A DNA stretch of 64,000 nt, from assembly GCA_009843915.1 (NCBI GenBank), contig VYCM01000146.1, positions 31,332 through 95,331 on the forward strand, given 5' to 3'. The position numbers and the translations under genes are program-made. The notes beneath the pieces were generated by a model that searched no databases, was not told the origin of the DNA, and worked only from the letters and a program-made list of their open reading frames with translations. Shown here one piece after another: positions 36,263 to 63,899 of this stretch (positions are counted from its first letter, which is position 1; every line of letters begins with the position of its first letter). The stretch comes from Acidimicrobiaceae bacterium (GTDB taxonomy: Bacteria > Actinomycetota > Acidimicrobiia > Acidimicrobiales > Aldehydirespiratoraceae).

Positions 36263-36636
36263 TGCGGATCTCCTTCGGAGTCGATGCTGCGATCGGGATC
36301 CCAGCCGCCGGTCTTGACGAACTCGTCCAGACGCTCCCGGGGGAACGCCTCCTCCAGGGAGGCCGCAGCCGCCATGGCGGCCGCCTCGGGATCGTCCGTG
36401 CCCGAGGGGATCAGAGACCGGCGCCACTCCCCTACGTACTGCGAGGCCTGAGTCTTGCCCGCCACCATGGCGGCCCGGTCGATGGCTCTCTGGAACCGGC
36501 GGGGGAGGATGCGCTGGACCCGGTCGGCGCCGGAACCGCCGTTGACCTGGGCGGGTATGTCGCGCCAACTGATCAGCACCAGGCTGCCGTCGTCGTTGCG
36601 GCGCCTGCGCCCGCCTCGCCCCGCTGGGGGACTCAT
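36259..36636 (-). CDS. Small protein of the 'virulence factor' (PF13769-like) family that accompanies corrinoid methyltransferase operons
   Basis: ATG 36636 overlaps the DUF1638 stop (ATGA), and its stop overlaps the GTG of the next gene (GTGA). The block SWRDIPAQVNG...QRAIDRAAM matches my recollection of this family. The assignment is from memory, not a search. Confidence 0.5.
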   Translation of the reverse strand: MSPPAGRGGRRRRNDDGSLVLISWRDIPAQVNGGSGADRVQRILPRRFQRAIDRAAMVAGKTQASQYVGEWRRSLIPSGTDDPEAAAMAAAASLEEAFPRERLDEFVKTGGWDPDRSIDSEGDPQ

Positions 36637-37261
36637 GCCGCCTCTGAGGTGTCCGCGCTGGCCAGCTCCACGATCCGGCCCTCGAGTCCGCCGATGCCGG
36701 TGACGATCCGCTCGCAACGAAGGCCGAGACGGGCGGCGGCCTGCTCCGCGGCGCGGGCCAGGCGGTCATCGTCGGCCTGGGCGAGGTGGACGACCCGGGT
36801 GTAGTTGCCGAAGTACGCCTCAAGGAGTTCCGGATGCTGGGAGATGCCCAACCCCTCCATGATCAAGCGATCGAAATGCCGCACCAGGTAGTCGGTGAGG
36901 TAGAAGGTGCCCGGCTCGACATCCTGCAGGCCGGCGAAGGCGTCGGGGCCGGTGTAGAGCTCGTAGCAGTGGGCGCCCGGCAGCCGCTCGACCCCCTCCT
37001 CGGCGCACACCCGGTCGAGCAGCCCGCCCGTGCCGCAGTCCATGTAGCCCACGATGATCGTTCTGTAGGCGCCGCGAGCCTTGGCGACCCGGACCCGCCG
37101 ACGGACGGCGTCGGGGATCCGCTCGGGGCGGTTGTGCATTATCGCGGGCAGGCACTCCACCTCGAGGTGCTTGCTGCCGTTGAGGGCTGCTATCTCGCGC
37201 AGTTCGCGGACCAGCGCGCCACAGCCGATGACAAGAACTTTCGAAGGGTGCGGCGGGGCCG

Positions 37262-37265
<4 letters not shown>
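36633..37265 (-). CDS. DUF1638 domain protein
   Basis: 210 aa. KVLVIGCGAL...VGYMDCGTGG...YLTDYLVRHFD matches the DUF1638 pattern as I recall it. ATGA overlaps at both ends. Confidence 0.6.
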
Positions 37266-37981
<716 letters not shown>

Positions 37982-43324: not shown

Positions 43325-43989
43325 CGGGCCGTGTCTTCAGCCGAGCCCGACACCGAGTCGTCGCTGGGGTCGTACAGCCAGCAATGGACGCCGCGGTAGC
43401 GGGCCACTTCGTGCTCGAAGTTCGTGCGATTGGGTGTGAACACCCCGATGTCGTACACCGACAACTCGTAGATCTCGCCCACGAAGGCCTCGAACTGCTC
43501 GTAGCACACCCTCAGGGCGAAACCACGCACCGCATCGTCGCCCGGGTAGATGGCAGGGTCGGGAGCGTCCAGATCGAAGGTGTGGTACACCTCGCCCCAG
43601 TGGGGCTCGTCGCAGCCGGTGCGGGCTGTGATCGCCAGCCGCCGACCCGCCTGCAGGCCCTCGAACCGGTTGAAGCAGTCACCCTCGACGAGGCTGTACT
43701 CGCTGATGATCTCGCCGGGAATGTCCAGCGGATCGATCGGTCCCAGTTCGAGGGGACCGCCCGAGCCGCCGCCGGCATCAGCGGCGGTGTCCGGCCTGGC
43801 CCCGCTTCCCCCCTCGAGAGCCGCCACCACATCGGCGGTGTTCGTGGGACCCGATGCAGCCACCGCCGCGGCCGGGTCGGTCACGCCCTCGTTCCCGTCC
43901 TCGGGTCCGCCGCTGCACGCTGCCAACAGCACCGCCGCGGCCACGGCGCCATGAAGCGAGCGCCCGAGGACTCGAGAAGCCAATCCCAT
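43321..43989 (-). CDS. Putative secreted lipoprotein (septum-formation-family-like)
   Basis: Signal peptide plus lipobox (AAAVLLAACSGG) if ATG 43989 is used. Paired Cys residues (CFNRF...CDEPHWGEVY...C...C). The track start 44055 would overlap the divergent gene. Confidence 0.5.
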   Translation of the reverse strand: MGLASRVLGRSLHGAVAAAVLLAACSGGPEDGNEGVTDPAAAVAASGPTNTADVVAALEGGSGARPDTAADAGGGSGGPLELGPIDPLDIPGEIISEYSLVEGDCFNRFEGLQAGRRLAITARTGCDEPHWGEVYHTFDLDAPDPAIYPGDDAVRGFALRVCYEQFEAFVGEIYELSVYDIGVFTPNRTNFEHEVARYRGVHCWLYDPSDDSVSGSAEDTAR

Positions 43990-44030
43990 CGAGCCGGAGA
44001 CTAGGACCTTGGCATCTAGAGTGTGCGCCG

Positions 44031-45212
44031 ATGACAGATCTGGGCTTCGCCGCATTCGACGCCGACAACCACTACTACGAGGCCACCGACGCCTTCACGC
44101 GCCACGTCGACCCGAGGATGCACAAGCGCTGCATGCAGTGGGCGACCGTAGACGGGCGCGAGCGGCTGCTGGTAGCCGGTCGGATCAACCGCTTCATCCC
44201 CAACCCCACCTTCGACCCGGTGGCGAGACCGGGCTGTCTGGACGATTACTTCAGGGGAAAGATCCCGGCCTCCGACATGCGCGAGGCCTTCGGCGAACTC
44301 AGGCCCATCTCGGCGGCCTACCGCGACCGCGACGCCCGCATCGAGTTGCTGGATTCACAAGGTCTGCAGGCGTGCTTCCTGTTCCCAACGCTGGGCGTGG
44401 GCATGGAGGCCGCCCTCGAGCACGACCCGGCCGCTCTCACGGCAGCGTTCGGGGGCTTCAACCGGTGGCTGGCCGACGACTGGGGGTTCGCCTACCGCGA
44501 CCGCCTGTTCGCGGCCGGGTACCTGACGCTGGCCGACCCCGACTGGGCCCTCGACGAGCTCGACTGGCTGATCGCCAACGACGTGCGGGTGGTGAACATG
44601 CGACCGTCGTCGGTGCCCGACACCGCAGGCGGCCGCCGCTCGCTGGGCCACCCCGCCCATGACAAGGTGTGGCAGCGGCTGGACGATCACGGCATCACGG
44701 TGGCCATGCACTCCGGCGACTCCGGCTACGGGTTCCTGCTGGAGCACTGGGGGGTGGACAGCGAGTTCGAGTCGTTCCGCTACAACGCCCTCAAGAGCAT
44801 GCTCACCTACTCGCCGATCTCCGACGCGCTGGCCTCGCTGCTGGCCGAGGGCGTGCTGAGCCGTCACCGGAACCTGCGCGTCGCCACCATCGAGACCGGC
44901 TCGGAATGGGTGTGGCCCTTCGTGAAGAAGCTCACCAAGACCTACCGCCAGCAGAGGCATGCCTTCGACGAGGATCCGCTGGAGGTGTTCCGGCGCCAGG
45001 TATGGATCTCGCCTTACTACGAGGACGACCTGCTCGCGCTGCGGGACCTGATCGGCGCGGACCACGTGCTGTTCGGGTCGGATTTCCCCCACGCCGAGGG
45101 ACTGGCCGATCCCGTGTCATTCGTGCATGACCTCGCCGGGTTCGCCGACGACGAGATCGAGCAGGTCATGCGCACCAACGGCCTGTCGCTCACCCAACGG
45201 GCCGCAGCCTGA
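44031..45212 (+). CDS. Amidohydrolase-2 family protein
   Basis: AFDADNHYYE N-terminal metal motif, and FGSDFPHAEG near the C-terminus. ATG 44031. Confidence 0.75.
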   Translation: MTDLGFAAFDADNHYYEATDAFTRHVDPRMHKRCMQWATVDGRERLLVAGRINRFIPNPTFDPVARPGCLDDYFRGKIPASDMREAFGELRPISAAYRDRDARIELLDSQGLQACFLFPTLGVGMEAALEHDPAALTAAFGGFNRWLADDWGFAYRDRLFAAGYLTLADPDWALDELDWLIANDVRVVNMRPSSVPDTAGGRRSLGHPAHDKVWQRLDDHGITVAMHSGDSGYGFLLEHWGVDSEFESFRYNALKSMLTYSPISDALASLLAEGVLSRHRNLRVATIETGSEWVWPFVKKLTKTYRQQRHAFDEDPLEVFRRQVWISPYYEDDLLALRDLIGADHVLFGSDFPHAEGLADPVSFVHDLAGFADDEIEQVMRTNGLSLTQRAAA

Positions 45213-45871: not shown

Positions 45872-47239
45872 CTAATCGGCCACCATCGGGATGGCGGGCA
45901 TGCCCTCCCGGCGCCTCAGCAGGTCCACGGTCCGCTCGTGGATCTCGGTCAGCGCCTCCGACTCGTCCACACCGCAGATCTCGCCGCCGGCGACGCAGGC
46001 CCGGCCCTGAACCCAGACGTCCCGCACGTCGCTGGAACGGCCGGCGAACACGAGGTTCCACAGGATCGGGTCATGTCCCTCCGACAGGGCCACGGGCAGC
46101 AGGTGAGGTTGCCACAGATCGACGGTGATCACATCGGCCTGCTTGCCGACCTCTATCGAGCCGACGGCCTCGCCAATACCGAGCAGCCGAGCGCCGTCGA
46201 TGGTGGCCATCCGCAGCGCTTCGTCGGCACTCACCGCGGTGGCGTCCAAGCGGGCCACCTTCTGAAGCAGCGACCCGATCTTCATGCACTCCCACATGCT
46301 CACCGAGTTGTTGGAGATCCCGCCGTCGGTGCCGAGCCCGACGACAATCCCCTGGTCCCAGAATCTCTCCAGCGGTGCGGTCCCGCCAGCCAGCTTCATG
46401 TTGCTCACCGGGCAGTGGGCCACACCGGTGCCGGTCTCGGCCAGCACCGCGATCTCGGCGTCGTCGACGTACACGCAATGGGCCAGTACCGAGCCGGGCC
46501 GCAGGATCCCGCGCTCGCTGAAGACGTGAACGGGCCGGTCGCCGAAGAGTTCGACCACCACGTCCACCTCCTCGCTCTGCTCGCTGGTGTGGGTGTGGAC
46601 GCTCACCCCGTAGGCGTCGGCCAGCTCGCCCACCCGCTGGAACATCTGCTCCGAGCAGTAGGTGATGTGCTCCAGTCCGAGCCACACCCTGATCCGCCCG
46701 TCGTGGGTGTCGTGGCAGTCCCGTATCAGTTGCTCGCTCGTCTCCAGCGTCTCGAAGAAATGCTTGGTCGGATGGTCGGCCGCGTAGGGCACCAGATTCG
46801 CCCGCATGCCCAGCGCGGCCGCGGCCTCCGCGCCCTTGTGTGGGTACCGGTACATGTCCATGACGGTGGTGGTGCCGCCCTTGAGCGCCTCCATGTAGCT
46901 GACCAGGTACCCGTAGTAGGCATCATCGGGCGTGAGCACCTGGTGCTCCCGCTGGTACTCGGGCAGCCAGTCCATCAACTGGGCGTTCTCGGAGTAGCCC
47001 TTGAGCAGACTGGAGTGGCTGTGGGCGTCGATCAGCCCGGGCAGCACCGCCAGCCGGCCACCGGCGTCGATCACCGTTGCCGAGTCGGGCACCTCGACGC
47101 CGCCGGTCGGCCCTACGGCGGTTATCACGCCGTCGGAGAAGACTACCGAGCCTGGGTTGAAGCTCCTGGAACCGTCGTCACAGCAGTAGACGACGGCGTT
47201 GACGATGGCCGTCTTGGCCCGAGTGTCCTGGTCGTTCAT
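45872..47239 (-). CDS. Amidohydrolase, TRZ/ATZ (chlorohydrolase/aminohydrolase/deaminase) family
   Basis: GLIDAHSHS, HTHTSEQ, AHCVY, HCPVSNMKLAGG, and LGTDGG metal-ligand blocks. ATG 47239 has GGAGGAA 4 nt upstream. Confidence 0.8.
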   Translation of the reverse strand: MNDQDTRAKTAIVNAVVYCCDDGSRSFNPGSVVFSDGVITAVGPTGGVEVPDSATVIDAGGRLAVLPGLIDAHSHSSLLKGYSENAQLMDWLPEYQREHQVLTPDDAYYGYLVSYMEALKGGTTTVMDMYRYPHKGAEAAAALGMRANLVPYAADHPTKHFFETLETSEQLIRDCHDTHDGRIRVWLGLEHITYCSEQMFQRVGELADAYGVSVHTHTSEQSEEVDVVVELFGDRPVHVFSERGILRPGSVLAHCVYVDDAEIAVLAETGTGVAHCPVSNMKLAGGTAPLERFWDQGIVVGLGTDGGISNNSVSMWECMKIGSLLQKVARLDATAVSADEALRMATIDGARLLGIGEAVGSIEVGKQADVITVDLWQPHLLPVALSEGHDPILWNLVFAGRSSDVRDVWVQGRACVAGGEICGVDESEALTEIHERTVDLLRRREGMPAIPMVAD

Positions 47240-47325
47240 GGGTTCCTCCGGAGGCCGAAGGTAGCCGCTGCCAGTTCCGCCATCTGTATGCGCGAGACTG
47301 CCAGCGGCCATTGAGGAGGCAAACC

Positions 47326-49926
47326 ATGGAGCAGCTCCTGGGAGCGCGATCGGGAACCGCCTACGGCGACGGATGGGTCCGCAGCGCGTGCACGATCTGC
47401 ATGAACCGGTGCGGGATCCTGGCCCATGTCAACGAGGACGAGGTGGTCGACAAGATCCTCGGCGACCCCGAGAACCCTCACAACCACGGACGCACCTGCG
47501 CCAAGGGCGACGCCGGGTTCGAGGGCCTTACCGATACCGATCGCATCACCACCCCGCTGCGGCGGACCAACCCCGACAAGGGCGTGGGCGTCGATCCCGG
47601 ATGGGTTCCGATCAGCTGGGACGAGGCCCTCGACGAGATAGCCGGGCATCTGCGCGACACCATCGCCGACGACCCCGAGAAGATCCTCTACACCAGCTTC
47701 GACATCTACCACCTGCGGGGCGCGCTGGCCGCGTCGTGGGTGACGGGGCTGGGGATGCCTGGGTACTCCACCTGGTCGGCCGCCATCTTCTGCGGCAACA
47801 ACGTGCACGGCATCCTCTACATGAACCAGAACGCGTTCGAGAGCAACCCCGATCCCATCTACAGCCGCTACATCCTCAACTTCGGGGCCCAGTTCGGCTC
47901 GGTGGTGCACTACGACACGATGCACTCCACCCACGAGCTGTCGGTGCGCCGCTCGGAAGTGCGGATGGTGTCGGTCGACCCGGTGTGCTCCTCCGCGGCG
48001 GCGGTGGCCGACGAGTGGGTGCCGATCCGCCCCGGCACCGATGCGGCGCTGATCCTGGGCATGGTCGACCAGCTCATCAACGAGCTCGGCATCTACGACG
48101 CCGAGTTCCTCAAGAACTTCACCAACGCCGCCTACCTGGTGGGCACCGACGGGCGCTACCTCCGCGATCCCGGCACCGGGAAGCCGCTGGTGTGGGACGA
48201 GGACAACGGACCGCAGCCCTTCGATGCCGGCACCGCCAACGCGGCCCTCACCGGCGTCTACGACGTGGACGGCGCCGAGGCCCGGCCCGGCTTCCAGATG
48301 CTGGCCGATCATGTGCGCTCGTACACGCCCGAGTACGTGGAGTCGATCACCACCGTGCCCGCCGCGACCGTCCGGCGACTGGCCAGGGAGTTCGGCGAGG
48401 CCGCCTGCATCGGCGAGACCATCACTGTCGACGGTGTCGAGTTGCCCTACCGCCCGGCCACCGTGGCCTGGTACCGGGGATTGTCGGCCCACAAGCACTC
48501 GATGCTCAACGGCATGGCCATCATCCTGCTGCCGACCCTGATCGGCGGCATCGACGTGCCCGGAGGGCTGCTGGGTGACCCGTGGGGGCTCATCGGCAAG
48601 GTCAAGGACCTTGAGTACACCTCCAAGGCCTCCGATGACGGGCTGATCTCGCAGGGGTTCATCGGCGGCGGTCGGGTGGGGGGCCTGTACCCGCCCCGGC
48701 CGACCGGGCCGCCCCGCACCACCGAGATGTGGGAGCTGCTGCCGTGCGCCCCCTACGGGACGGTGTTCTCGCTGCTCAACTCCGAGCAGCCCGAGCTCTT
48801 CGGGGCGCCACCGTTCCCGTCGATGATGATCAACTTCCAGTCCAACATGATGAAGAGCTCGGGCCCGCCCGAGGTCGTGGAGCGGTTCATCAAGCGGATC
48901 CCGTTCGTCGCCGCCATCGCCAGGCGCTTCGAGGAGACCACGCTGATGGCCGACATCGTGCTGCCCGACGTTCACTACCTGGAGCGGATGACGCCGCTGG
49001 TGTACCAGCATCTGGCCTCGGGCGACTCTCGCCATGCGGCCTACGGGGCCAAGCCGGTGGTGCAGTCGAGCATCGAGGGACCCGTGGCCGGCGAGCCTTA
49101 CGTGGACGCCATGCAGATCTACCTGGAGCTGCTGAGGCGGGCCGACCGGCTGCCGCAGTTCAACGAGGCGTTCAACAACATCGCCAAGATGCGGGAGCCC
49201 TACAGGCTCGACCTCGATGGCAGATACTCGTACTTCGAGATCTGCGACCGGTGGCTCCGCAACACCCTGGGGGACGACAAGGGCCTCGACTGGCATCTCA
49301 GCGACGGGCTCTGGACCGCCGACAAGACCGTCGAGCAGAAGTTCCCGAGGCCGTTCTTCGACGCCAGGGCGCAGGTCTACTGCGAGTTCATGGTCGACAC
49401 CAAGGTGAACCTCGAGCACACCGTCGAGGAGCTGGGCATCCCGTGGGAGACCGACGACTACCAGCCGCTGCCCGACTGGAAGCCGGGACCGGCCTATGAG
49501 CGCACCGCTCCCCACGACCTGTTCGTGACCAACATGAAGGTCCCCAATCACGCGCTGTCCCACACTCACAAGAACTCGATCCTGAACACGCTGTCGAACC
49601 GGCACAACGATCTGAAGTCGGTGTGGATCAACCCCAAGACAGCTGAGGCCCGGCGCATATCCCACGGCGACCTGGTGGAGATCGAGACCTCGGGGGGCCG
49701 CAAGCAGACGGCCACCGCCCGGGTCACGCAGCTGGTCCATCCCGAGGTGCTGGCCACGCAGGGCTGTGGCGGCGGCTGGAGCAGCGGCAGCAGCGGCGAC
49801 GAGGTCAACTTCAACGCCTTGCTGAACATCGATGTCGAGCACATCGACTTCGTGTCGGGGGCACTGGACTGCGCCATCGCGGCCGACGTGCGGACCGTGC
49901 CGACCGGACGGGGAGGGGCGCGATGA
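47326..49926 (+). CDS. Molybdopterin (Mo/W-bisPGD) oxidoreductase catalytic subunit, no Tat signal
   Basis: ATG 47326 follows GAGGAGG. N-terminal FS0 cluster motif C-x2-C-x3-C...C (CTICMNRC...GRTCAKG). About 866 aa. There is no RRxF twin-arginine leader. Confidence 0.85.
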   Translation: MEQLLGARSGTAYGDGWVRSACTICMNRCGILAHVNEDEVVDKILGDPENPHNHGRTCAKGDAGFEGLTDTDRITTPLRRTNPDKGVGVDPGWVPISWDEALDEIAGHLRDTIADDPEKILYTSFDIYHLRGALAASWVTGLGMPGYSTWSAAIFCGNNVHGILYMNQNAFESNPDPIYSRYILNFGAQFGSVVHYDTMHSTHELSVRRSEVRMVSVDPVCSSAAAVADEWVPIRPGTDAALILGMVDQLINELGIYDAEFLKNFTNAAYLVGTDGRYLRDPGTGKPLVWDEDNGPQPFDAGTANAALTGVYDVDGAEARPGFQMLADHVRSYTPEYVESITTVPAATVRRLAREFGEAACIGETITVDGVELPYRPATVAWYRGLSAHKHSMLNGMAIILLPTLIGGIDVPGGLLGDPWGLIGKVKDLEYTSKASDDGLISQGFIGGGRVGGLYPPRPTGPPRTTEMWELLPCAPYGTVFSLLNSEQPELFGAPPFPSMMINFQSNMMKSSGPPEVVERFIKRIPFVAAIARRFEETTLMADIVLPDVHYLERMTPLVYQHLASGDSRHAAYGAKPVVQSSIEGPVAGEPYVDAMQIYLELLRRADRLPQFNEAFNNIAKMREPYRLDLDGRYSYFEICDRWLRNTLGDDKGLDWHLSDGLWTADKTVEQKFPRPFFDARAQVYCEFMVDTKVNLEHTVEELGIPWETDDYQPLPDWKPGPAYERTAPHDLFVTNMKVPNHALSHTHKNSILNTLSNRHNDLKSVWINPKTAEARRISHGDLVEIETSGGRKQTATARVTQLVHPEVLATQGCGGGWSSGSSGDEVNFNALLNIDVEHIDFVSGALDCAIAADVRTVPTGRGGAR

Positions 49927-50588
49927 CCCGGTGGGGCATGGTGATCGACGCGGCTCGCTGCGTCGGCTGCCAGGCCTGCACCGTGGCCTGCAAGACCGAG
50001 AACCAGTCGCCGCTGGACGCCTGGTACGCGCCCGTGATCGAGTGGGAGGAGGGCGAGTTCCCCGACGCCACCCTCAACTACCTGCCGGTGCTGTGCAACC
50101 ACTGCGAGGACGCCCCCTGCGTGACCGCCTGCCCGTCGGGAGCGCTCACGCGCCGCGACGACGGCATCGTGATGGCCGACGAGGACGTGTGCATCGGCTC
50201 GCGGGCTTGCATGACAGCCTGCCCCTACGGTGCGCTGCACTTCTTCGAGGACCGCGGCACGGTGGCCGTGGAGGGCGCCCCCGCCGAGGCCGTGCCCAGC
50301 GTGCCGGAACGCTACGCGCACCAACGCCATGTGCGGGGCGCGGTGTCGAAGTGCACCTACTGCGCCCACAAGATCGACTTCGGCCTCGAGAACGGCCTCG
50401 AGGTCGGGGTGCATCCCCTGGCCACGCCCGCCTGCGTGGTCACCTGCCCGGCCGAGTGCCGGATCTTCGGCGACCTCGACGACCCCGACAGCAACGTGAG
50501 CCAGTACCTGGCCGAGCACGGCGGCGGCGAAGCGCTCAGACCTGACGCGAAGACGCTGCCGAGCACCCAGTATGTGGGGCTCCCATGA
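49923..50588 (+). CDS. 4Fe-4S dicluster electron-transfer subunit (DmsB/PsrB type)
   Basis: CVGCQACTVACK, CNHCEDAPCVTACP, CIGSRACMTACP, and CTYC...CVVTCP ferredoxin motifs. ATGA overlap with the catalytic subunit. Confidence 0.85.
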   Translation: MTRWGMVIDAARCVGCQACTVACKTENQSPLDAWYAPVIEWEEGEFPDATLNYLPVLCNHCEDAPCVTACPSGALTRRDDGIVMADEDVCIGSRACMTACPYGALHFFEDRGTVAVEGAPAEAVPSVPERYAHQRHVRGAVSKCTYCAHKIDFGLENGLEVGVHPLATPACVVTCPAECRIFGDLDDPDSNVSQYLAEHGGGEALRPDAKTLPSTQYVGLP

Positions 50589-51592
50589 CTGCGGTCAGTC
50601 CGATGGCTGGGGGAGGTGCCGGCCCCCAGAACGTGTTCATGGACCAGTTCAACCTGGAGGCCCGCACCCAGAGGGTGTGGGACATCAACCACGCCATCTG
50701 GTTCACGCTGATGGGAGTCGGCGGGGGAGTGTTCCTGGCCGGGCGGATCCTGAACCTCACCGAGGGTCTCGGCTACGTGCTCGGGATCCCCACCGTCGAT
50801 GTCGTCAGCTTCCTGGCGATCGCGGTCGGCGGGGCGATCCTGGTCGCCGACCTGGGCCGGCCCCTCCAGGCCTGGAGGGCCTTCGTCAATGTGCGCACCA
50901 GCTGGATTTCCTGGGGGGCGTGGTCCGACCTGATCTTCCTGGTCATGGCCGGTCTGCTGGTACTCCCCGCGTTGAGCCTGGGCGGATCAGAGCCGTTCTC
51001 CGGGTTGGGATGGGATCCCCACGGCGGCGACGGTGGCGGCCTCGCGCTGGAGATCATCGCCGGCGTGGCCGCAGTGGTGGTGATGACCTACGCGGGGGCG
51101 GTCCTGGCCCGGCCCCGTGCCATCCCGTACTGGAACTCGCCGGCGGTGCCGCTTCAGTTCCTGCTGTCGTCGGCCGCGATGTCGGTGGCGGTGGTGATGC
51201 TGATCGAGGTGATCGCGGGCGAGCCCGTGACCGCCGGCCAGATGGTGCTGCTGGGTCTCCTGACGGCAGCCTTGACGGTGGCGGTGGTCGTACACCTGCT
51301 TGCCCGGACCGATGCTCCCGGCAAGAAGGAGAGCCTGGATCGACTGCTGCGGGGCCAGTACCGCTCGATGTTCGTGTGGGGCGTCTTCGCGAGCGGGACG
51401 GTCGCTCCGGCGGTTCTCGCATTCGCCGGTGCCGTCGTCGGCGTGTCCGGCGCCCGTGATGCGCTGGCCGTGATCTGCTGTGTGCTGCTTGTGCCGGGCG
51501 GTTTCTGGCTGAGGCTGCTCACGCTGCGGGTGGGGATCTTCCCACCGGTTCACATCCCGTCGGTCAGCGGCCCCCGGATGGCCGCCCCGTAG
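50585..51592 (+). CDS. NrfD/PsrC-type integral membrane quinone-interacting subunit
   Basis: 335 aa with about 8 hydrophobic helices. 4-nt overlap with the FeS subunit. The gene order A-B-C is that of complex iron-sulfur molybdoenzymes. Confidence 0.75.
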   Translation: MTAVSPMAGGGAGPQNVFMDQFNLEARTQRVWDINHAIWFTLMGVGGGVFLAGRILNLTEGLGYVLGIPTVDVVSFLAIAVGGAILVADLGRPLQAWRAFVNVRTSWISWGAWSDLIFLVMAGLLVLPALSLGGSEPFSGLGWDPHGGDGGGLALEIIAGVAAVVVMTYAGAVLARPRAIPYWNSPAVPLQFLLSSAAMSVAVVMLIEVIAGEPVTAGQMVLLGLLTAALTVAVVVHLLARTDAPGKKESLDRLLRGQYRSMFVWGVFASGTVAPAVLAFAGAVVGVSGARDALAVICCVLLVPGGFWLRLLTLRVGIFPPVHIPSVSGPRMAAP

Positions 51593-51607
51593 CCGGAGGG
51601 TGACGCC

Positions 51608-52120
51608 GTGGCCATGACCGACGCCGCCCTCGACGCCGCCCACGAGGGGCTGCGGGCCGCAGGCATCGACTTCGTCTCTGGGCTGCCCGACGGCTGGCAG
51701 CGGCCGCTGCACGAGCGGGTGGAGCTCGACCCGGACATCCGCTATGTGCCGGTGTGCAACGAGGGCGTCGGGTTCTCGATCTGCGCCGGGGCGTGGCTCG
51801 GGGGCAAGAAGCCTGCCCTGATCATGGAGAACAGCGGGCTGCGGGTGGCCTCGGAGTACATCGCCCGCATCTCGCTGGGCACCGGTGTGCCGGTCACGCT
51901 GCTGTGCTCGTACCGGGGCGACGTGGGCGAGACCGAGCACTGGGGGATCCCTCACGGGATCGTGGCCGAGCCTCTGCTGGACGCGCTGAGGATCAAGTAC
52001 CTGATCGTGCGCCATGTGGAGGATCTGGCCAAGTCGATCGTGCGGGCCAAGCGGATCTCCGAGGCCCAGCTCCATCCCGCGGCCGTGCTCGTCTCCGGCG
52101 ACTGCGTGTGGGAGGACTGA
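51608..52120 (+). CDS. ThDP-dependent decarboxylase, alpha (pyrimidine-binding) subunit; sulfopyruvate/phosphonopyruvate decarboxylase-like
   Basis: 170 aa. GIDFVSGLPDG...VPVCNEGVGFSICAGAWLGG with the catalytic Glu context. GGAGGG lies upstream of GTG 51608. Confidence 0.65.
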   Translation: MAMTDAALDAAHEGLRAAGIDFVSGLPDGWQRPLHERVELDPDIRYVPVCNEGVGFSICAGAWLGGKKPALIMENSGLRVASEYIARISLGTGVPVTLLCSYRGDVGETEHWGIPHGIVAEPLLDALRIKYLIVRHVEDLAKSIVRAKRISEAQLHPAAVLVSGDCVWED

Positions 52121-52123
52121 GGG

Positions 52124-52777
52124 GTGGCCCTGGACCGCTACGAATGGCTTGGCCGGCTGGCCAACCGGCTGCCCGAGGACTGCCTTGTGATGTCCACCTA
52201 CATCGGGGCAGTGTCCTTCGAGTGGGCCCACCACACGGAGGAGCACCACCGGACCGCTCACCTCGGCCAGATGGGCGACGTGATCGGCATGGCGGTGGGC
52301 CTGGCGCTGGCCCTGCCCCACCGCAGGATCGTGTGCCTCGACGGCGACGGGTCGGTGCTGATGGAACTGGGCCAACTGGTGGCTATGGGGGAGCAGCAGC
52401 CCGACAACCTGGTGGTGTTCGTGGTGGACAACGGCGTGTACGAGTCGATCGGCTGGAGCAGCCAGGGCCGGCGGCCCACCGCTACCGCCGGCCGGGTCGA
52501 CCTAGCCGCCATCGCGGCAGGCTGCGGGGTGCCCTACACCGTGGACGTCACCGCCGAGGACGAGCTGGACGCCGAGATCGAGTTGGCCTTCTCCCGCAAT
52601 GTGTGCAGCTTCATCAACGTGCGCACCCGGCCCGGCCACTCCCACGTGCGGCCCCGCCGCACCGACGGCATAGAGGACAAGTACCGCTTCGTGCGCTACG
52701 TCGAGCGCCTAGAGGGCATCTGGATCACCGGAGTCCCACCCCAGGACATCGCCCTGATGAAGGACCGTAAGGGCTAG
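52124..52777 (+). CDS. ThDP-dependent decarboxylase, beta (diphosphate-binding) subunit
   Basis: ThDP motif GDGS-x(24-27)-N: LDGDGSVLMELGQLVAMGEQQPDNLVVFVVDNGVYES. 217 aa, starting 3 nt after the alpha subunit. Confidence 0.65.
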   Translation: MALDRYEWLGRLANRLPEDCLVMSTYIGAVSFEWAHHTEEHHRTAHLGQMGDVIGMAVGLALALPHRRIVCLDGDGSVLMELGQLVAMGEQQPDNLVVFVVDNGVYESIGWSSQGRRPTATAGRVDLAAIAAGCGVPYTVDVTAEDELDAEIELAFSRNVCSFINVRTRPGHSHVRPRRTDGIEDKYRFVRYVERLEGIWITGVPPQDIALMKDRKG

Positions 52778-52783
52778 CGGATC

Positions 52784-53916
52784 CTAGGAGGCGTCGGGGT
52801 CGGATAGGCGGAGGTCGGCGAACTCGTGGGGGTTGCGGTCACCGACCAGCACGTGCTGGCTGCCGGCGTGCATGTCGCGGAAGCAGCGCTGCAGCGGCCC
52901 GTCCCGCAGAGCCTCGGTACCGCACCACTCGTAGAGGCTGCGGACCACGGCCAGACCCTCCTGGGTGAGCAGCGTGGCCGACTGCTTGATGTTGGTGGCC
53001 AGCACCGGGTCGCGGCCCGAGCCGGCCTCGGCCGCCTGCTCGGCCGTCCGGAAGGCCTGGCGGCACCAGGTCTCGGCTGCCTCGAAGCGCGACACCCCCA
53101 TGGCGAACTCGTAACGGAAGCGGGGATCCTCCGCGATGACCGACGGAGCAGCCATGCGGGTCCGGACCTTGGCGATGGACACCGCCTCGTCGATGGCTCG
53201 CCGGACGACCCCGATGGTCCAGCCCATGTGACCGATCTCGGTGAGGATGATCACCCCGAGGTCGTACATGGGGCCGCCCCTGTACCGGGTGGGGGAGAAG
53301 AACTCGAAGGTGGCGTGGGCGGGTAGGTCGGCGTCGATGCTGTAGTCGTAGGACGAGGCGGCCCGCAGCCCCAGCACGTCCCAGTTACCGAGCAGCTCCA
53401 CCTCGGAGCGGGGCATCATCATCAGGCGGAACTCGGCTTGTTCGCCCTCGGGCGGGGCGGTGAAGGCGCCCCCGCCCACCCAATCGGCATGGGCAACACC
53501 CGACCCGAAGCTGTACTTGCCGGTGAGCCGATACATGTCGCCGTTGGGCACCGCGGTGCCGTTGGGCGCGAACTGGCCGGCCACCACCGGGACGACACCT
53601 CCGGCGATCATCTCGTCGGTGAAGCTGTCGGGGCAGTAGGCACCGAAGAAGCAGGCGGCGGTGGCTCCGGCCATGAGGGACCAGCCGAGGGGCCATCGCC
53701 GTAGGCCACCTCGGCGAACACGTCCAGGCAGTCATCGGTGGGCAGTTCGGCACCGCCCACGGCACGCGGTGACAGGGCGCCGTACAGGCCCGCCTCGAAG
53801 CAGACGCTCACTAACTCCTGTGGCAGAGCGGTCGCGCCGGTCTCCGCGGCCGCCGCGCCGCCAGCATCGACCGCTGGGCGCAGATCGCGGGCCCGTTCCA
53901 GCAGTTCGGATCCCAT
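52784..53916 (-). pseudogene. Acyl-CoA dehydrogenase-fold (flavin) oxidoreductase, disrupted by a 1-nt frameshift
   Basis: The N-terminal 75 aa (53916 downward: MGSELLERARDLRP...DVFAEVAYGDG) and the C-terminal 296 aa (from 53674) are both ACAD-like but lie in different frames. Adding one C to the C4 run (G4 at 53689-53692 on +) restores ...AYGDGPLGWSLMAGATAACFF.... Confidence 0.65.
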
Positions 53917-53926
53917 CCGCTCGGAC

Positions 53927-55144
53927 CTAGGGGACTGCCCGAAGCGACTCGGCCATGGTGTCGATGATCCGGCCGATCTCGTCGTCGGTGATCACCAGCG
54001 GCGGGCACAGCGCCAGCACGTCGTTGATGGGCCGTGCGATCACACCCCGCCGCAACATGTCGTTGCGCACGTCCATCGACGGGCGGTCCAGCACCGCGGC
54101 CTGGACCGCGCCCTCGCCGCGGTACGACGCGATGAGCCCGTCGGCGGCCAACGCCGCGAGCCCCTCGGTCAGCTTGGCTCCCACATGGCGGGCCCGGTCC
54201 ACGAGGCCCTCCTCGGTGATGATCTCCAGGTTCTTGACCGCGGCGGCGGCCACGGTGGGATGGCCCGAGTAGGTGTAGCCGGTGCGCAGCAGGAAGCCGG
54301 GCTCCTCGAGGTTCTCGCACACCCGGCGGCTGACGATCACGCCGCTGAGGGGCAGGTAGCCGGAGGTCACGCCCTTGGCGAAGGTCATCATGTCGGGGGT
54401 CACGCCGAAGGTCTGTGCCCCGAACCACTCGCCGGTGCGGCCGAATCCGCAGATCACCTCGTCGAGGATCAGCAGGGCGCCGTGCTGGTCGCACAGCCGG
54501 CGGACCCCGGCGAGGTAGCCCTCCGGCGGCGGGAACACGCCGCCCGCGCCCTGCACCGGCTCGGTGATCACCGCGGCCACCCGTTCGCCGTGCTCGGCGA
54601 ACGCGGTGGCCATCACCTCGATGTCGTCGTTGGGGACCTCGATGAAGTGGGGGACAAGATCGCCCCATCCCTCGCGGTTGGGAGCGATGCCCTGGGCCGA
54701 GGTGCCGCCGAAGTTGGTGCCGTGGTAGCCGTTGGTGCGCCGTATCACCACCTGGCGCTCGGCTCCGCTGGTCCGCCGGGCGTAGAGGCGGGCGAGCTTG
54801 AGTGCGGTGTCCACCGCGTCCGACCCGGTGCAGCCGAAGAACACCCGCCCGTCGGTCAGGGGTGAGCGTTCCGCGATCAACTCGGCCGCCCTGGCCGCGG
54901 GCGGGTTGGTGAACGGGTCGAATGTGTTGTAGGTGGCGAGATCGCGCATCTGCGCGGCCACCGCGTCGGCCATCTCCGGTCGGGAATGGCCGATCTGGCA
55001 GTACCAGAGGCTGGCCAGGCCGTCGATGTATGAGTTCCCCTGATCGTCGTAGAGGGTGGAGCCCTCCGCCCGCACGATGTTGATCATCTCGGACTCCGGC
55101 TTGGCCGGAGGGGCGAAGGGATGGAGCAGAGCGTGATTACCCAT
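53927..55144 (-). CDS. Class III (omega-) aminotransferase, PLP-dependent
   Basis: GCTGSDAVDTALKLAR, ILDEVICGFGRTG, and TFAKGVTSGYLPL (PLP lysine) blocks. AGGAGC lies 8 nt upstream of ATG 55144. Confidence 0.85.
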   Translation of the reverse strand: MGNHALLHPFAPPAKPESEMINIVRAEGSTLYDDQGNSYIDGLASLWYCQIGHSRPEMADAVAAQMRDLATYNTFDPFTNPPAARAAELIAERSPLTDGRVFFGCTGSDAVDTALKLARLYARRTSGAERQVVIRRTNGYHGTNFGGTSAQGIAPNREGWGDLVPHFIEVPNDDIEVMATAFAEHGERVAAVITEPVQGAGGVFPPPEGYLAGVRRLCDQHGALLILDEVICGFGRTGEWFGAQTFGVTPDMMTFAKGVTSGYLPLSGVIVSRRVCENLEEPGFLLRTGYTYSGHPTVAAAAVKNLEIITEEGLVDRARHVGAKLTEGLAALAADGLIASYRGEGAVQAAVLDRPSMDVRNDMLRRGVIARPINDVLALCPPLVITDDEIGRIIDTMAESLRAVP

Positions 55145-56350: not shown

Positions 56351-57310
56351 TCAGGTGCGGTACTCCACACCGGGGAGCACGCAAAGCATCTCGTAGACGA
56401 GATCGGCGGCAATGTGGGCCGTCATTCCCGAGGTGTCGTAGATGGGCGCCACCTCCACCATGTCACAGCCGACCAGGTCCAGGCCCCGGCAGCCGCGGAT
56501 GATCTCCAGGGCCTGTGGGGTGGTGAGCCCGCCGATCTCGGGGGTGCCGGTGCCGGGAGCGAACGACGGGTCGAGCCCGTCGATGTCGAAGCTCAGGTAC
56601 ACCGGGCCGCCGCCGACCTGGTCGCGCACCTCGTCCATCAGCGGCGCCAGCGAGCGGTGCCAGCACTCCTCGATCTGCACCACCCGGAAACCCTGCTGGC
56701 GTGACCAGTCGAAGTCCTCGGCCGCGTAACCGGTGGCCCGCATACCGATCTGGACCACCCGTGAGCAGTCGAGCAGTCCCTCCTCCACCGCCCGGCGGAA
56801 CGGGGTGCCGTGGGCGATGCGCTCACCGAACATCTCGTCGTTGATGTCGGTGTGGGCGTCGATATGCACCAGCCCGACCGGTCCGTGGCGGGCCCGCATG
56901 GCCCGCAGGATGGGCAGCGCGATGGTGTGGTCGCCGCCGAGGGCCACGGTGATCACATCGTGGGACAGCAGCTCGGCGAAGTGCGCTTCGATGCGGTCGA
57001 CCGAGTCCAGCAGGTTGTAGGGGTTGGTGGCCACGTCTCCGGTGTCGTCGATGCGCAGGCTGTCGAAGGGTGCGGCCCGGGTGGCCATGTTGTAGGGGCG
57101 AATCAGCACCGACTCGTCGCGGATGCCCCGGGGGCCGAAGCGTGCGCCGGGCCGGTTCGAGGTGCCGATGTCGAACGGCACTCCGACGATGGCCGCATCG
57201 AGTTCCGAGGGCTGCGAACGTCCCGGCAGCCGCATGAAGGTGGCTATCCCCGCGAAGCGAGGCATCTCGTTGCCACCCAGCGGCTGGGGGTTGGCGTCTG
57301 GCCCGGTCAC
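56351..57310 (-). CDS. Agmatinase-family ureohydrolase (guanidino-compound amidinohydrolase)
   Basis: Mn-binding blocks of the arginase/agmatinase family: LGGDHTI, VHIDAHTD, LSFDIDGLDP, and EVAPIYD. Confidence 0.85.
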   Translation of the reverse strand: MTGPDANPQPLGGNEMPRFAGIATFMRLPGRSQPSELDAAIVGVPFDIGTSNRPGARFGPRGIRDESVLIRPYNMATRAAPFDSLRIDDTGDVATNPYNLLDSVDRIEAHFAELLSHDVITVALGGDHTIALPILRAMRARHGPVGLVHIDAHTDINDEMFGERIAHGTPFRRAVEEGLLDCSRVVQIGMRATGYAAEDFDWSRQQGFRVVQIEECWHRSLAPLMDEVRDQVGGGPVYLSFDIDGLDPSFAPGTGTPEIGGLTTPQALEIIRGCRGLDLVGCDMVEVAPIYDTSGMTAHIAADLVYEMLCVLPGVEYRT

Positions 57311-63077: not shown

Positions 63078-63899
63078 TCAGGCGGTGGCCAGGGGGCGGT
63101 CCGGATCGGATCCCCAGGCGGACCACGACCCCACGAACAGCCGGCCGTCACCCAGCCCCGTATGACGGAGGGCGAGCAGGTCGTGACAGGCCGACACGCC
63201 GCTGCCGCAGTAGGCGATCACCGGGCGGTCTGCCGCTCCGACCTCGGTGTAGCGGTCTCGCAGGTCGTCAGCAGGCCGGAACCGGCCGTCGTGGAGGTTG
63301 TCGCCGACCTGCATGCTCACCGCGCCGGGGATGTGGCCGAAGCGGGGATCGATGGCGTTGGGCTCGCCGCGGTACCGCTCGACGGAGCGGGCGTCGATCA
63401 CCAGACGGTTCGGGTCGGTGCGGGCCGCGTCGACCTCGTCGATGGTGGCGAAGCGCTCTGCGGGCCAGGGTCGGGCGGTGAACGGCTCCGGCTGCCATGA
63501 GGGCTCCGCTGTCTGCAGGGCGCCGGGCCAGGCGTCGAGCCCGCCGTCGAGCACAGCCACGTCACGGCCTACGCAGTCGAGCATCCACCACAGCCGCGAT
63601 GCGATGACTCCGCCGACGTCGTCGTAAGCGACGACAGCGGCGTCGTCACCGATCCCCAGCCGGCCCATGGCCGCGGCGAAGTCCTCGGGTGAGGGCAGGG
63701 GATGGCGGCCGCTCTCGGTTGTGGGCGGGCCCGAGAGATCGGTGTCGAGGTCGACGAAGCGAGCCCCCGGGATGTGGCCCCGGTCGTAGGCCTCCCGACC
63801 CGAGCGGCCGTCCAGGTACCACCTGACATCGGCGATCACCGCGGCATCGGCGTGGGCCGCCAGCCATTCGGCGTCGACCAGGGGTCCGAAGCCGTCCAT
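63078..63899 (-). CDS. sseA: Tandem-rhodanese sulfurtransferase (3-mercaptopyruvate/thiosulfate sulfurtransferase)
   Basis: Two rhodanese repeats, the HIPGA motif twice, and the active-site loop YCGSGVSAC. Confidence 0.85.
   Translation of the reverse strand: MDGFGPLVDAEWLAAHADAAVIADVRWYLDGRSGREAYDRGHIPGARFVDLDTDLSGPPTTESGRHPLPSPEDFAAAMGRLGIGDDAAVVAYDDVGGVIASRLWWMLDCVGRDVAVLDGGLDAWPGALQTAEPSWQPEPFTARPWPAERFATIDEVDAARTDPNRLVIDARSVERYRGEPNAIDPRFGHIPGAVSMQVGDNLHDGRFRPADDLRDRYTEVGAADRPVIAYCGSGVSACHDLLALRHTGLGDGRLFVGSWSAWGSDPDRPLATA

Follow-up and report, generated by a model that had tools for sequence, protein, structure and literature searches.

Which reaction could join a membrane-anchored, respiratory-type molybdoenzyme to the thiamine diphosphate (ThDP) decarboxylase encoded directly behind it? 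The question is raised by a stretch of 64,000 nucleotides of contig VYCM01000146.1 from an Acidimicrobiaceae metagenome-assembled genome (MAG); this whole stretch is hereafter called the window. Five adjacent genes encode a molybdenum- or tungsten-bis(pyranopterin guanine dinucleotide) (Mo/W-bisPGD) catalytic subunit (MoA), an iron-sulfur (FeS) subunit and an NrfD/PsrC-type membrane anchor, together called MoABC, and the two halves of a split ThDP enzyme (ThDP-alpha and ThDP-beta). A preliminary description of the window had likened the first three to the sulfite:quinone dehydrogenase SoeABC and the last two to the sulfopyruvate decarboxylase ComDE, and had suggested an organosulfonate pathway that disposes of its sulfite in the cytoplasm. 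The cluster is neither SoeABC, nor ComDE, nor a phosphonopyruvate decarboxylase (Ppd) system; it is a Pad-type arrangement in a large, functionally uncharacterised family. We tentatively read it as a Pad-like alpha-oxidation module, in which MoABC would make a 2-oxo acid while reducing quinone and the ThDP pair would decarboxylate that acid, by analogy with the Pad system; this reading is quite possible, though it falls short of being probable.

The five tightly packed + strand genes of the preliminary description (47326-52777) were all recovered from open reading frames (ORFs), translations and Pfam domains (Table 1), and they form one operon. MoA and the FeS gene overlap by 4 nt, as do the FeS and NrfD genes, while 15 nt separate NrfD from ThDP-alpha and 3 nt separate ThDP-alpha from ThDP-beta. 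The window has a GC content of approximately 69%, and MoA, NrfD, ThDP-alpha and ThDP-beta also passed a third-position-GC filter (GC3 0.87-0.93); the FeS gene was called from its ORF, translation and Pfam domain. The MoA, FeS and NrfD proteins and the product of the divergent deaminase gene were exact matches to the NCBI proteins MYH78877-MYH78880 of an Acidimicrobiaceae MAG, MoA being MYH78878.1.

The position of the catalytic subunit was examined in a neighbour-joining (NJ) tree of 85 MoA homologues (810 columns, 100 bootstraps). The SoeA group, named through the IMG label 'sulfite dehydrogenase (quinone) subunit SoeA' in two 90% clusters, formed its own clade with 100% bootstrap on a long stem. 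Its Tat-less (twin-arginine translocation signal-less) proteins, encoded by Beta- and Gammaproteobacteria (Gallionella/Sideroxyarcus, Billgrantia, Burkholderiales), were roughly 940-1020 aa from stop to stop, with annotated cluster members of ~965-986 aa. Among the matches listed in a scan of a genome collection, the window MoA was 29-31% identical to the SoeA group over residues 20-554. It belonged to a family of 30 sequences from Acidimicrobiia, Nitrososphaerales, Chloroflexi, Deltaproteobacteria and Bacillota (hereafter the window family), which shared a 100% clade, separate from SoeA, with 14 homologues that lack the FS0 cluster. These 14 formed a 100% subclade of their own, to which the window family was sister rather than member. 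A Tat-less superclade (99% bootstrap) united the SoeA clade with this larger clade as sisters, and the motif FC(G/S)xN at the Mo-ligand Cys was common to SoeA and the window family.

The FS0-less group was identified as PadB because one member, from Paramagnetospirillum caucaseum (L018; related loci are given L numbers), sits in a pad operon. A gene for an FlK-like thioesterase lies upstream of this homologue and an FeS subunit downstream, and further downstream proteins exceeded the NCBIfam equivalog cut-offs for PadE (320 against 300), PadG (774 against 700) and PadI (816 against 700); a PaaK-like phenylacetate-CoA ligase scored 588 bits, under its cut-off of 646. Such a ligase was found in 7 of the 14 loci of the PadB group. 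The composition of the pad cluster has been given as padBCD, padEFGHI and padJ (PMC4453571). When profiles were set against each other, PadB outscored SoeA for all 25 window-family members compared (median 341 vs. 233 bits), and SoeA was the lowest of the three profiles for every one of them. With the catalytic subunit outside the SoeA clade and the PadB profile ahead throughout, the identification of MoABC as SoeABC was abandoned. The FeS subunit pointed the same way, being 45-48% identical to PadC-like subunits vs. 34-37% to SoeB. Judged from these sequence comparisons, the MoA family is a predicted cytoplasm-facing offshoot of the Psr/Arr/Soe/Pad radiation with PadB as its nearest characterised relative. 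The genome-collection scan yielded few close relatives among the matches listed and was supplemented by contig look-ups and by a metagenome scan with ThDP-alpha; a tblastn search of a plasmid collection returned SoeA-like or generic 'molybdopterin oxidoreductase' matches alone, at 33% identity or less.

The absence of a twin-arginine leader from MoA, also part of the preliminary description, held up when a cryptic signal from another start was considered. Upstream of the ATG at 47326 the frame stays open for 41 codons, as far as a stop at 47200. This stretch overlaps the divergent amidohydrolase gene and has a TTG at 47311 as its sole alternative start, and no Tat consensus was found within it (47200-47326). 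The ATG is preceded by a GAGGAGG ribosome-binding site, and all 14 homologue N-termini inspected lacked a Tat motif ahead of the CxxCxxxC cluster. The FS0 ligands C22, C25, C29 and C58 were invariant in 24 homologues, as was C156 (motif FCGNN), which aligns with the Mo-ligand Cys of ArrA. An AlphaFold2 model of MoA (pLDDT 83.5, pTM 0.88) had ArrA, PcrA and PsrA as its top Foldseek matches, with TM-scores of 0.67-0.78 for the PsrA/ArrA-type matches, and among solved structures the family profile scored best with PsrA (218 bits) and ArrA (210 bits). Pyrogallol transhydroxylase and acetylene hydratase were rejected as nearest relatives (50 and 150 bits, respectively). PsrABC and PhsABC likewise have an NrfD-type anchor, and ArrAB and PsrA are the closest solved relatives, but these systems are Tat-exported and face the periplasm. 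Naming MoA through NCBIfam, which contains no SoeA or PadB model, was given up as every match fell far under its cut-off, the best being PhsA (195 vs. 694) and ArrA reaching 118 vs. 1600.

The four-cluster ferredoxin of the preliminary description was supported by its 16 Cys and the Fer4_11 domain, except that the third Cys group deviates: it reads CIGSRAC, which is offset by an extra Cys in CPAEC. The same pattern (third group CIG-S/A/D-xAC with the second Cys lost, extra Cys after the fourth group) was seen in the window and in L001, L005, L007, L009, L087, L088, L100, L112, L149 and L157, while PadC-like and SoeB-like FeS subunits and that of L073 retain the standard CIGCxxC … CPxxA. As read from the sequences, this swap could represent a relocated ligand or a 3Fe-4S cluster. 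Hydropathy analysis of the NrfD anchor showed eight hydrophobic segments, in agreement with the eight helices described previously. Approximately 13 Lys/Arg residues fall in its N-terminus, even-numbered loops and C-terminus, and none in the other loops, or one if the unresolved loop between transmembrane (TM) segments 7 and 8 is counted. The positive-inside rule, applied to this Lys/Arg count, predicts both termini to be in the cytoplasm, together with the Tat-less subunits; the anchor is presumed to carry the quinone site. MoA, FeS subunit and NrfD anchor are thus predicted to form a Tat-less, cytoplasm-facing complex with the topology of SoeABC, and the three-subunit, SoeABC-like architecture of the preliminary description was sustained by Pfam domains, topology and N-termini.

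The 170-aa and 217-aa proteins encoded next were correctly recognised in the preliminary description as one split ThDP enzyme, in which ThDP-alpha corresponds to the pyrimidine-binding (PYR) half and ThDP-beta to the pyrophosphate-binding (PP) half of the ComDE/Ppd superfamily. The GDGS part of the reported motif GDGS…NN was present; its NN part was not, the sequence reading GDGS-x26-N-G (…VVDNG). ThDP-alpha reached 19.5 bits with TPP_enzyme_N, under the cut-off of 26.8. The proposed equivalence with ComDE failed on comparison with the equivalog models, for ThDP-alpha scored 94.5 with ComD (TIGR03845; cut-off 147.95), ThDP-beta scored 101 with ComE (TIGR03846; cut-off 221.5), and with Ppd (TIGR03297; cut-off 312.5) ThDP-beta reached 118.6 and ThDP-alpha 60.6. 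Among solved structures, ThDP-alpha was nearest to an unnamed split ThDP enzyme (9u8q_A, 78 bits), followed by RhiE (43 bits), and ThDP-beta to RhiF (9iz3_B, 49.5 bits). RhiEF (9IZ3) is a split phosphonopyruvate decarboxylase (PMC12141560); no relevant paper was found on PDB entries 9U8Q-9U8S. ComDE and RhiEF share with the window pair the superfamily, the division into PYR and PP halves (~170 aa and ~190-220 aa, respectively), and the GDG…N motif, and by this analogy a 3-substituted pyruvate is probably decarboxylated to a substituted acetaldehyde. Unlike theirs, the neighbours of the window pair's family are aldehyde dehydrogenase, deaminases and xanthine dehydrogenase-type (XDH-type) enzymes and not ComABC or phosphoenolpyruvate (PEP) mutase, PepM. 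ThDP-alpha had 508 matches in 5.8 billion proteins, the best 120 at 74-96% identity, and by this measure appears to define a narrow, strongly conserved family. IMG and some NCBI MAG records call its homologues 'sulfopyruvate decarboxylase'; these names are automatic transfers and not evidence. From its scores, we regard the pair as a distinct split decarboxylase of the ComDE/Ppd superfamily.

The coupling of MoABC to the ThDP pair, described previously for the window alone, is conserved beyond this genome. L087, whose MoA is 83% identical to that of the window, has the same gene order; in L005, L006 and L007 (MoA 63-66% identical) the ThDP pair lies divergently upstream of MoABC, and in L088 (64%) it lies 9 kb downstream. 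The metagenome scan with ThDP-alpha gave 79 loci, of which the 25 of at least 8 kb were used to count gene content. MoABC was present in 12 of these, and linked loci showed three different gene orders. Seven of the 12 had the co-directional order MoA-FeS-NrfD(-ThiS/MoaD-like)-ThDPalpha-ThDPbeta, two of the seven being near-identical to each other; L097 and L163 have a window-like arrangement. Aldehyde dehydrogenase genes occurred in 15 of the 25 loci, and in 17 of 42 informative loci such a gene was the immediate convergent neighbour of ThDP-beta. Amidohydro_1 (TRZ/ATZ-type) genes were likewise present in 15 of the 25 and XDH-type large-medium-small-subunit (LMS) hydroxylases in 12, the latter directly upstream of MoABC in at least six loci (L100, L102, L104, L113, L122 and nearby arrangements). 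The loci without MoABC often had an iron-containing alcohol dehydrogenase (Fe-ADH) gene divergently upstream and/or a VanA_C-type oxygenase gene downstream, as in L093, L095, L098, L101, L115 and L133. There was no overlap between the six Fe-ADH loci, some of which also have a VanA_C oxygenase, and the 17 MoABC loci. By analogy with mandelate degradation, this arrangement fits a putative oxygenase/dehydrogenase route to the same 2-oxo acid.

Some variation was observed around this linkage. A small ThiS/MoaD-like gene is usual between NrfD and ThDP-alpha or right after MoA (7 of the 12 metagenomic MoABC loci; L005 12243-12587, L007 14280-14591, L090 11570-11887) and is missing from the window, where the gap is just 15 nt. 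In six MoABC-less soil loci (L117, L126, L128, L133, L136, L138) an adenosine-deaminase-family gene lies ahead of the ThDP pair, and in L133 (6389-13681) the pair is followed by genes for an IF-2B/MtnA-type isomerase and a P450; this context hints at a link to purine metabolism of the 5'-deoxy- or methylthio-adenosine kind. One contig binned as Verrucomicrobiales (L093/L094) encodes a ThDP-alpha 80% identical to that of the window in a context typical of Acidimicrobiia (aminotransferase, Amidohydro_1, Fe-ADH, aldehyde dehydrogenase, XDH), through either horizontal transfer or mis-binning.

Beyond gene content, topology, phylogenetic position and linkage, we infer a reaction, an order of steps and a class of substrate. 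MoABC would oxidise an activated methylene or hydroxymethine carbon beside the carboxyl group of a cytoplasmic organic acid to the 2-oxo acid, with water as the source of oxygen and with electrons handed on from FS0 through the four-cluster subunit to the quinone in NrfD. The ThDP pair would decarboxylate this 2-oxo acid to an aldehyde, which a convergently encoded aldehyde dehydrogenase would oxidise in most lineages; in the window lineage its place may be taken by a class-III aminotransferase. The net result would be the loss of one carbon (alpha-oxidation) with an oxidation step that needs no O2. Variants with Fe-ADH/VanA_C would arrive at the same 2-oxo acid by means of O2 and NAD, in the manner of the mandelate pathway (mandelate dehydrogenase, benzoylformate decarboxylase, benzaldehyde dehydrogenase), whose logic is the same and which the MoABC-less variants resemble; unlike in that pathway, the window ThDP enzyme is split and distant from benzoylformate decarboxylase (25-33 bits), and the oxidant is a membrane-bound Mo-bisPGD complex. 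Since the neighbours are deaminases, XDH-type hydroxylases and UbiD or Amidohydro_2 decarboxylases, the module is suggested to sit in catabolic islands for amino-substituted N-heterocycles or related compounds.

The proposed parallel with Pad would lie in a 2-oxo-acid product consumed by an adjacent ThDP enzyme; the decarboxylase is encoded directly downstream of MoABC in a conserved linkage. The Mo enzyme of the Pad system reportedly oxidises the alpha-methylene of phenylacetyl-CoA to phenylglyoxylate in a water-dependent four-electron reaction that has quinone as its acceptor, and phenylglyoxylate is said to be consumed by the ThDP-dependent PadEFGHI. To our knowledge, cytoplasm-facing, quinone-feeding Mo-bisPGD enzymes are few, with SoeABC and PadBCD as the characterised examples, the latter known solely from the anaerobic degradation of phenylalanine. 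Thauera, Aromatoleum and Magnetospirillum have a pad cluster in which the Mo enzyme precedes a ThDP enzyme, and the latter decarboxylates the 2-oxo acid that the former makes (PMC4453571). PadBCD, like MoABC, is Tat-less, membrane-bound, three-subunit and cytoplasm-facing. The two differ in length (834-890 aa for MoA of the window family vs. ~905-950 aa for PadB), in the ThDP partner, which is a non-oxidative split decarboxylase accompanied in family loci by aldehyde dehydrogenase as opposed to the O2-sensitive 2-oxoacid oxidoreductase of Pad, and in their hosts, which are aerobic Acidimicrobiia, Nitrososphaerales and Chloroflexi as opposed to denitrifiers; in contrast to Pad, the neighbours of the window family point to the catabolism of N-heterocycles or amines.

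Several observations weigh against an alpha-oxidation module. The window family falls outside PadB proper and keeps the full FS0 Cys motif, which PadB lacks; its position comes from an NJ tree alone, built without curated reference sequences, and a mixed profile of Tat-bearing Psr-like sequences nearly equalled PadB for its members (median 308 vs. 341 bits). Neither a CoA ligase of the PaaK type, nor a thioesterase, nor a 2-oxoacid:ferredoxin oxidoreductase (OFOR) accompanies the window family, a difference from the pad cluster that would mean that Pad-like chemistry does not act on a PaaK-activated thioester; in tblastn searches of the window and of ~100 family and ThDP loci, the PaaK-like, PadG, PadI and FlK-like proteins of L018 had no match. 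No aldehyde dehydrogenase gene was found in the window. Distant MoA genes in Chloroflexi and Bacillota stand alone, with no FeS subunit, anchor or ThDP pair, so that a tie to the ThDP step is not general in the MoA family. The mutual exclusion of Fe-ADH and MoABC is based on few, partly redundant loci. The dominant deaminase and XDH-type neighbours would fit equally well with a MoABC that acts directly on a heterocyclic ring.

That last point leads to an explanation which we consider unlikely, albeit a serious competitor, namely that MoABC and the ThDP pair serve the same pathway in non-consecutive steps: MoABC would hydroxylate or dehydroxylate an N-heterocycle ring or substituent, and the ThDP pair and aldehyde dehydrogenase would process a later 2-oxo-acid fragment of ring cleavage. 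Amidohydro_1 or TRZ/ATZ deaminase genes near MoA in most contexts (up to six in L088), the frequent XDH-type LMS genes, the adenosine-deaminase-family genes upstream of the ThDP pair in six loci, and recurrent UbiD, Amidohydro_2, hydantoinase A/B, RidA, isochorismatase, NicX-like, DHO_dh and Bmp-/NMT1-type neighbours all agree with it, as do the stand-alone MoA genes of Chloroflexi and Bacillota, which lie between genes for UbiD and XDH. However, the known ring hydroxylases of N-heterocycles belong to the XDH family and are not Mo-bisPGD enzymes, PadB acts on a side-chain methylene, and the tight co-directional operon together with the replacement of MoABC by Fe-ADH/VanA_C beside the ThDP genes points to adjacent steps. 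MoABC could also work in the opposite direction, as a quinol-oxidising reductase of a cytoplasmic N-oxide, S-oxide or hydroxylated heterocycle (for detoxification or dehydroxylation), loosely tied to the ThDP pair. A Nitrososphaerales relative has the NarI-type cytochrome b anchor typical of quinol-oxidising reductases, many Psr/Arr-type relatives are reductases, and members of the family exist without partners; but SoeABC and PadBCD, the characterised cytoplasm-facing enzymes with NrfD anchors, are generally known as dehydrogenases that feed quinone, the hosts are mostly aerobic heterotrophs that carry the genes in catabolic clusters, and the operon fusion and the Fe-ADH/oxygenase substitution would be left unexplained, so that we give this direction only a small chance. 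A merely fortuitous abutment of two unrelated modules in the window genome would account for the 13 of 25 loci with a ThDP pair and no MoABC and for the distant relatives with MoA and no ThDP pair; it is very improbable given the 4-nt overlaps and 3-15 nt gaps, and a linkage maintained across MoA identities of 63-95%, three gene orders, and soil, marine and freshwater metagenomes.

The organosulfonate pathway of the preliminary description would make MoABC a SoeABC-type sulfite:quinone dehydrogenase, the ThDP pair a sulfopyruvate decarboxylase or a sulfite-releasing Xsc-like enzyme, and the aminotransferase a Tpa, in the degradation of taurine, cysteate or sulfolactate. Subunit set and topology are identical to those of SoeABC (Allochromatium vinosum, Ruegeria pomeroyi, Aquifex aeolicus), the Cys-ligated Mo centre and FS0 cluster are shared, and SoeA is a fairly close relative, as its sister position and shared FC(G/S)xN motif indicate; the label 'sulfopyruvate decarboxylase' on the alpha subunit, though transferred automatically, and NMT1/SsuA-like binding proteins in some contexts lean the same way. 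The Fe-ADH, aldehyde dehydrogenase and class-III aminotransferase families are generally known to include sulfoacetaldehyde enzymes. This pathway is nonetheless improbable, for MoA falls outside the SoeA clade and annotated SoeA proteins are ~100 aa longer, the scores with ComD, ComE and Ppd stayed far short of the cut-offs, and the constant partners of the cluster are deaminases and XDH-type enzymes. As the preliminary description had itself remarked, Xsc, SuyAB and sulfonate transporters are missing from the window (~50 Pfam-scanned genes); neither there nor in ~45 related loci were Xsc, SuyAB, CuyA, sulfolactate dehydrogenase (SlcD/ComC), Pta, TauABC or PEP mutase found. A dsr, sox, apr or tauABC context was found neither in the 64-kb window nor in the related loci examined, and SoeABC differs from the window family in this sulfur-oxidation and sulfonate gene context; a ComABC-type context (sulfolactate, cysteate or coenzyme M genes) was likewise lacking in the window and the annotated ThDP loci. 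Luciferase-like neighbours considered as SsuD proved F420/Mer-like, and the NMT1-type binding proteins considered as SsuA scored 49-84 against the SsuA-family cut-off of 163. A role of the ThDP pair as phosphonopyruvate decarboxylase in phosphonate metabolism is hardly credible: Ppd was the best NCBIfam match and RhiF the best solved-structure match of the beta subunit, and Fe-ADH, aldehyde dehydrogenase and aminotransferase families are also generally known to include phosphonoacetaldehyde enzymes, but the Ppd score was far under its cut-off, PEP mutase, PhnX, PhnA and PhnWY were found in none of the Pfam-annotated or labelled neighbourhoods, and the alpha subunit is nearer to the unnamed 9u8q than to RhiE.

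The sister family of PadB is large and uncharacterised, extends across Acidimicrobiia, Nitrososphaerales, Chloroflexi, Deltaproteobacteria and Bacillota, and in Actinobacteria is repeatedly operon-fused with a dedicated, highly conserved split ThDP decarboxylase. The occurrence of Pad-like enzymes in such fusions in aerobic Actinobacteria may surprise specialists. Were the genes annotated as SoeABC or ComDE, the MAGs would be credited in error with sulfite oxidation and sulfonate metabolism. If alpha-oxidation is correct, it would amount to a new route of catabolism among uncultured aerobes that are abundant, and would give a testable function to proteins labelled 'sulfopyruvate decarboxylase', 'polysulfide reductase NrfD' and 'anaerobic selenocysteine-containing dehydrogenase'. 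A bolder version of the alpha-oxidation proposal, possible but doubtful, is that this unrecognised family supplies an O2-independent one-carbon-shortening module with which aerobic Acidimicrobiia degrade carboxymethyl-substituted N-heterocycles or similar acids, and which is interchangeable with the oxygenase/Fe-ADH version. Pad-type chemistry would then reach beyond the anaerobic breakdown of phenylalanine by denitrifiers into widespread aerobes of soil and sea, possibly also symbiotic ones.

Table 1. The MoABC-ThDP operon and its neighbours (positions in the window).
Feature	Position	Strand	Basis
MoA, Mo/W-bisPGD catalytic subunit, 866 aa	47326-49926	+	Pfam Molybdop_Fe4S4, Molybdopterin, Molydop_binding
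FeS subunit, four-cluster-type ferredoxin, 221 aa, 16 Cys	49923-50588	+	Pfam Fer4_11
NrfD/PsrC-type membrane anchor, 335 aa, 8 TM helices	50585-51592	+	PF03916, 65 bits
ThDP-alpha, PYR half of split ThDP decarboxylase, 170 aa	51608-52120	+	ComD model, 94.5 bits; weak TPP_enzyme_N
ThDP-beta, PP half, 217 aa, GDGS-x26-NG	52124-52777	+	PF02775 (TPP_enzyme_C), 77 bits
TRZ/ATZ-family aminohydrolase (deaminase-type Amidohydro_1)	45872-47239	-	PF01979, 232 bits; divergent from MoA
Divergent intergenic region, 86 nt, between deaminase gene and MoA operon	47240-47325	.	Direct sequence reading
Amidohydro_2 family protein (ACMSD / isoorotate-decarboxylase type)	43854-45212	+	PF04909
Class-III (omega) aminotransferase	53927-55144	-	PF00202, 308 bits
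NicX-like protein, 345 aa	55292-56329	-	25% identity over 328 aa to PF26233 protein of L001
Agmatinase-like ureohydrolase	56351-57310	-	PF00491 and two NCBIfam agmatinase models

The genes flanking the operon differ in how widely they accompany it. The deaminase ORF extends to 47311, but its likely start, with a GGAGGA ribosome-binding site, is at 47239, and therefore an 86-nt intergenic region is shared with MoA; ribosome-binding sites were read on both strands, and the region presumably holds promoters and regulatory sites. The best NCBIfam matches of the deaminase were chlorohydrolase, 5'-deoxyadenosine deaminase and TRZ/ATZ models, all under cut-off, and an Amidohydro_1 gene also lies near MoA in L001, L005, L007, L087-L089, L091 and L092. 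The Amidohydro_2 gene is kept beside the cluster in L087 and L097, and Amidohydro_2 or UbiD decarboxylases recur near MoA family members, which makes its product a possible member of the pathway. The NicX-like protein is another possible member: a PF26233 (NicX) protein adjoins the Nitrososphaerales MoA homologue of L001, and the L087 orthologue of the window protein carries PF26233. The class-III aminotransferase is 54% identical to one beside the ThDP pair in L093 and is kept in L087 and L097; it possibly handles an aldehyde or amine product in the window lineage. The ureohydrolase passed two agmatinase models (308.5 against 302 for a subfamily and 225.9 against 174.3 for an equivalog) and was seen as a neighbour only in the close relatives L087 and L097; its link to the MoABC-ThDP system is uncertain. 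An arginine-transaminase-like route suggested by these - strand genes (aminotransferase, the ThDP pair as an AruI analogue, guanidinobutyrase, GabT) was set aside: the genes were seen with the cluster only in those two close relatives, and elsewhere the ThDP pair travels with aldehyde dehydrogenase, XDH-type enzymes and deaminases. A 296-aa ORF resembling HsaA/acyl-CoA-dehydrogenase-like flavin monooxygenases (52784-53674, -) ends 6 nt from the ThDP-beta stop. It aligns only to profile positions 104-359 of 383 and thus lacks ~100 N-terminal residues; the syntenic L087 does not have it, and it probably represents a gene fragment.

Across the wider family, the neighbours of MoA relatives include Amidohydro_1 proteins (among them cyclic amidases), XDH-type enzymes, UbiD, Amidohydro_2, hydantoinase A/B, RidA, isochorismatase, NicX-like proteins, DHO_dh, Amdase, F420/Mer-like luciferase-like oxidoreductases, and NMT1- and Bmp-type binding proteins. 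The ThDP pair was absent at the loci examined for relatives in Nitrososphaerales, Chloroflexi, Deltaproteobacteria and Bacillota. In the Nitrososphaerales locus L001/L002 (8001-12579), MoA and the FeS subunit are followed by a 104-aa protein and a NarI-type (PF02665) cytochrome b anchor that replaces NrfD, and the flanks carry a divergent Amidohydro_1 gene, an isochorismatase gene and a NicX-like gene. In L090 (1373-13625), one ThiS/MoaD-like-FeS-NrfD set is preceded by three MoA paralogues of 883, 855 and 854 aa, two of which are in tandem, with PrpD and cupin genes between the first and second paralogue; from this arrangement, the catalytic subunits may share one electron-transfer and anchor module.

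Elsewhere in the window, two genes only were sulfur-related, a tandem-rhodanese gene (63078-63899, -) and a SulP/STAS transporter gene (9143-10639, +); each is over 10 kb away from the cluster and is not conserved near it at other loci. Genes for quaternary-amine demethylation form a large set at 15825-37823. It comprises two MttB-family methyltransferases (15825-17360, +; 31796-33328, -), a RACo corrinoid activator (33391-35367, -), a pterin-binding methyltransferase (35372-36823, -) and a DUF1638 protein (36633-37823, -), together with a Rieske oxygenase (17393-18694), a DAO+GCV_T dimethylglycine-dehydrogenase-like protein (18725-21277), a GMC oxidoreductase (21860-23554) and a GFA protein.

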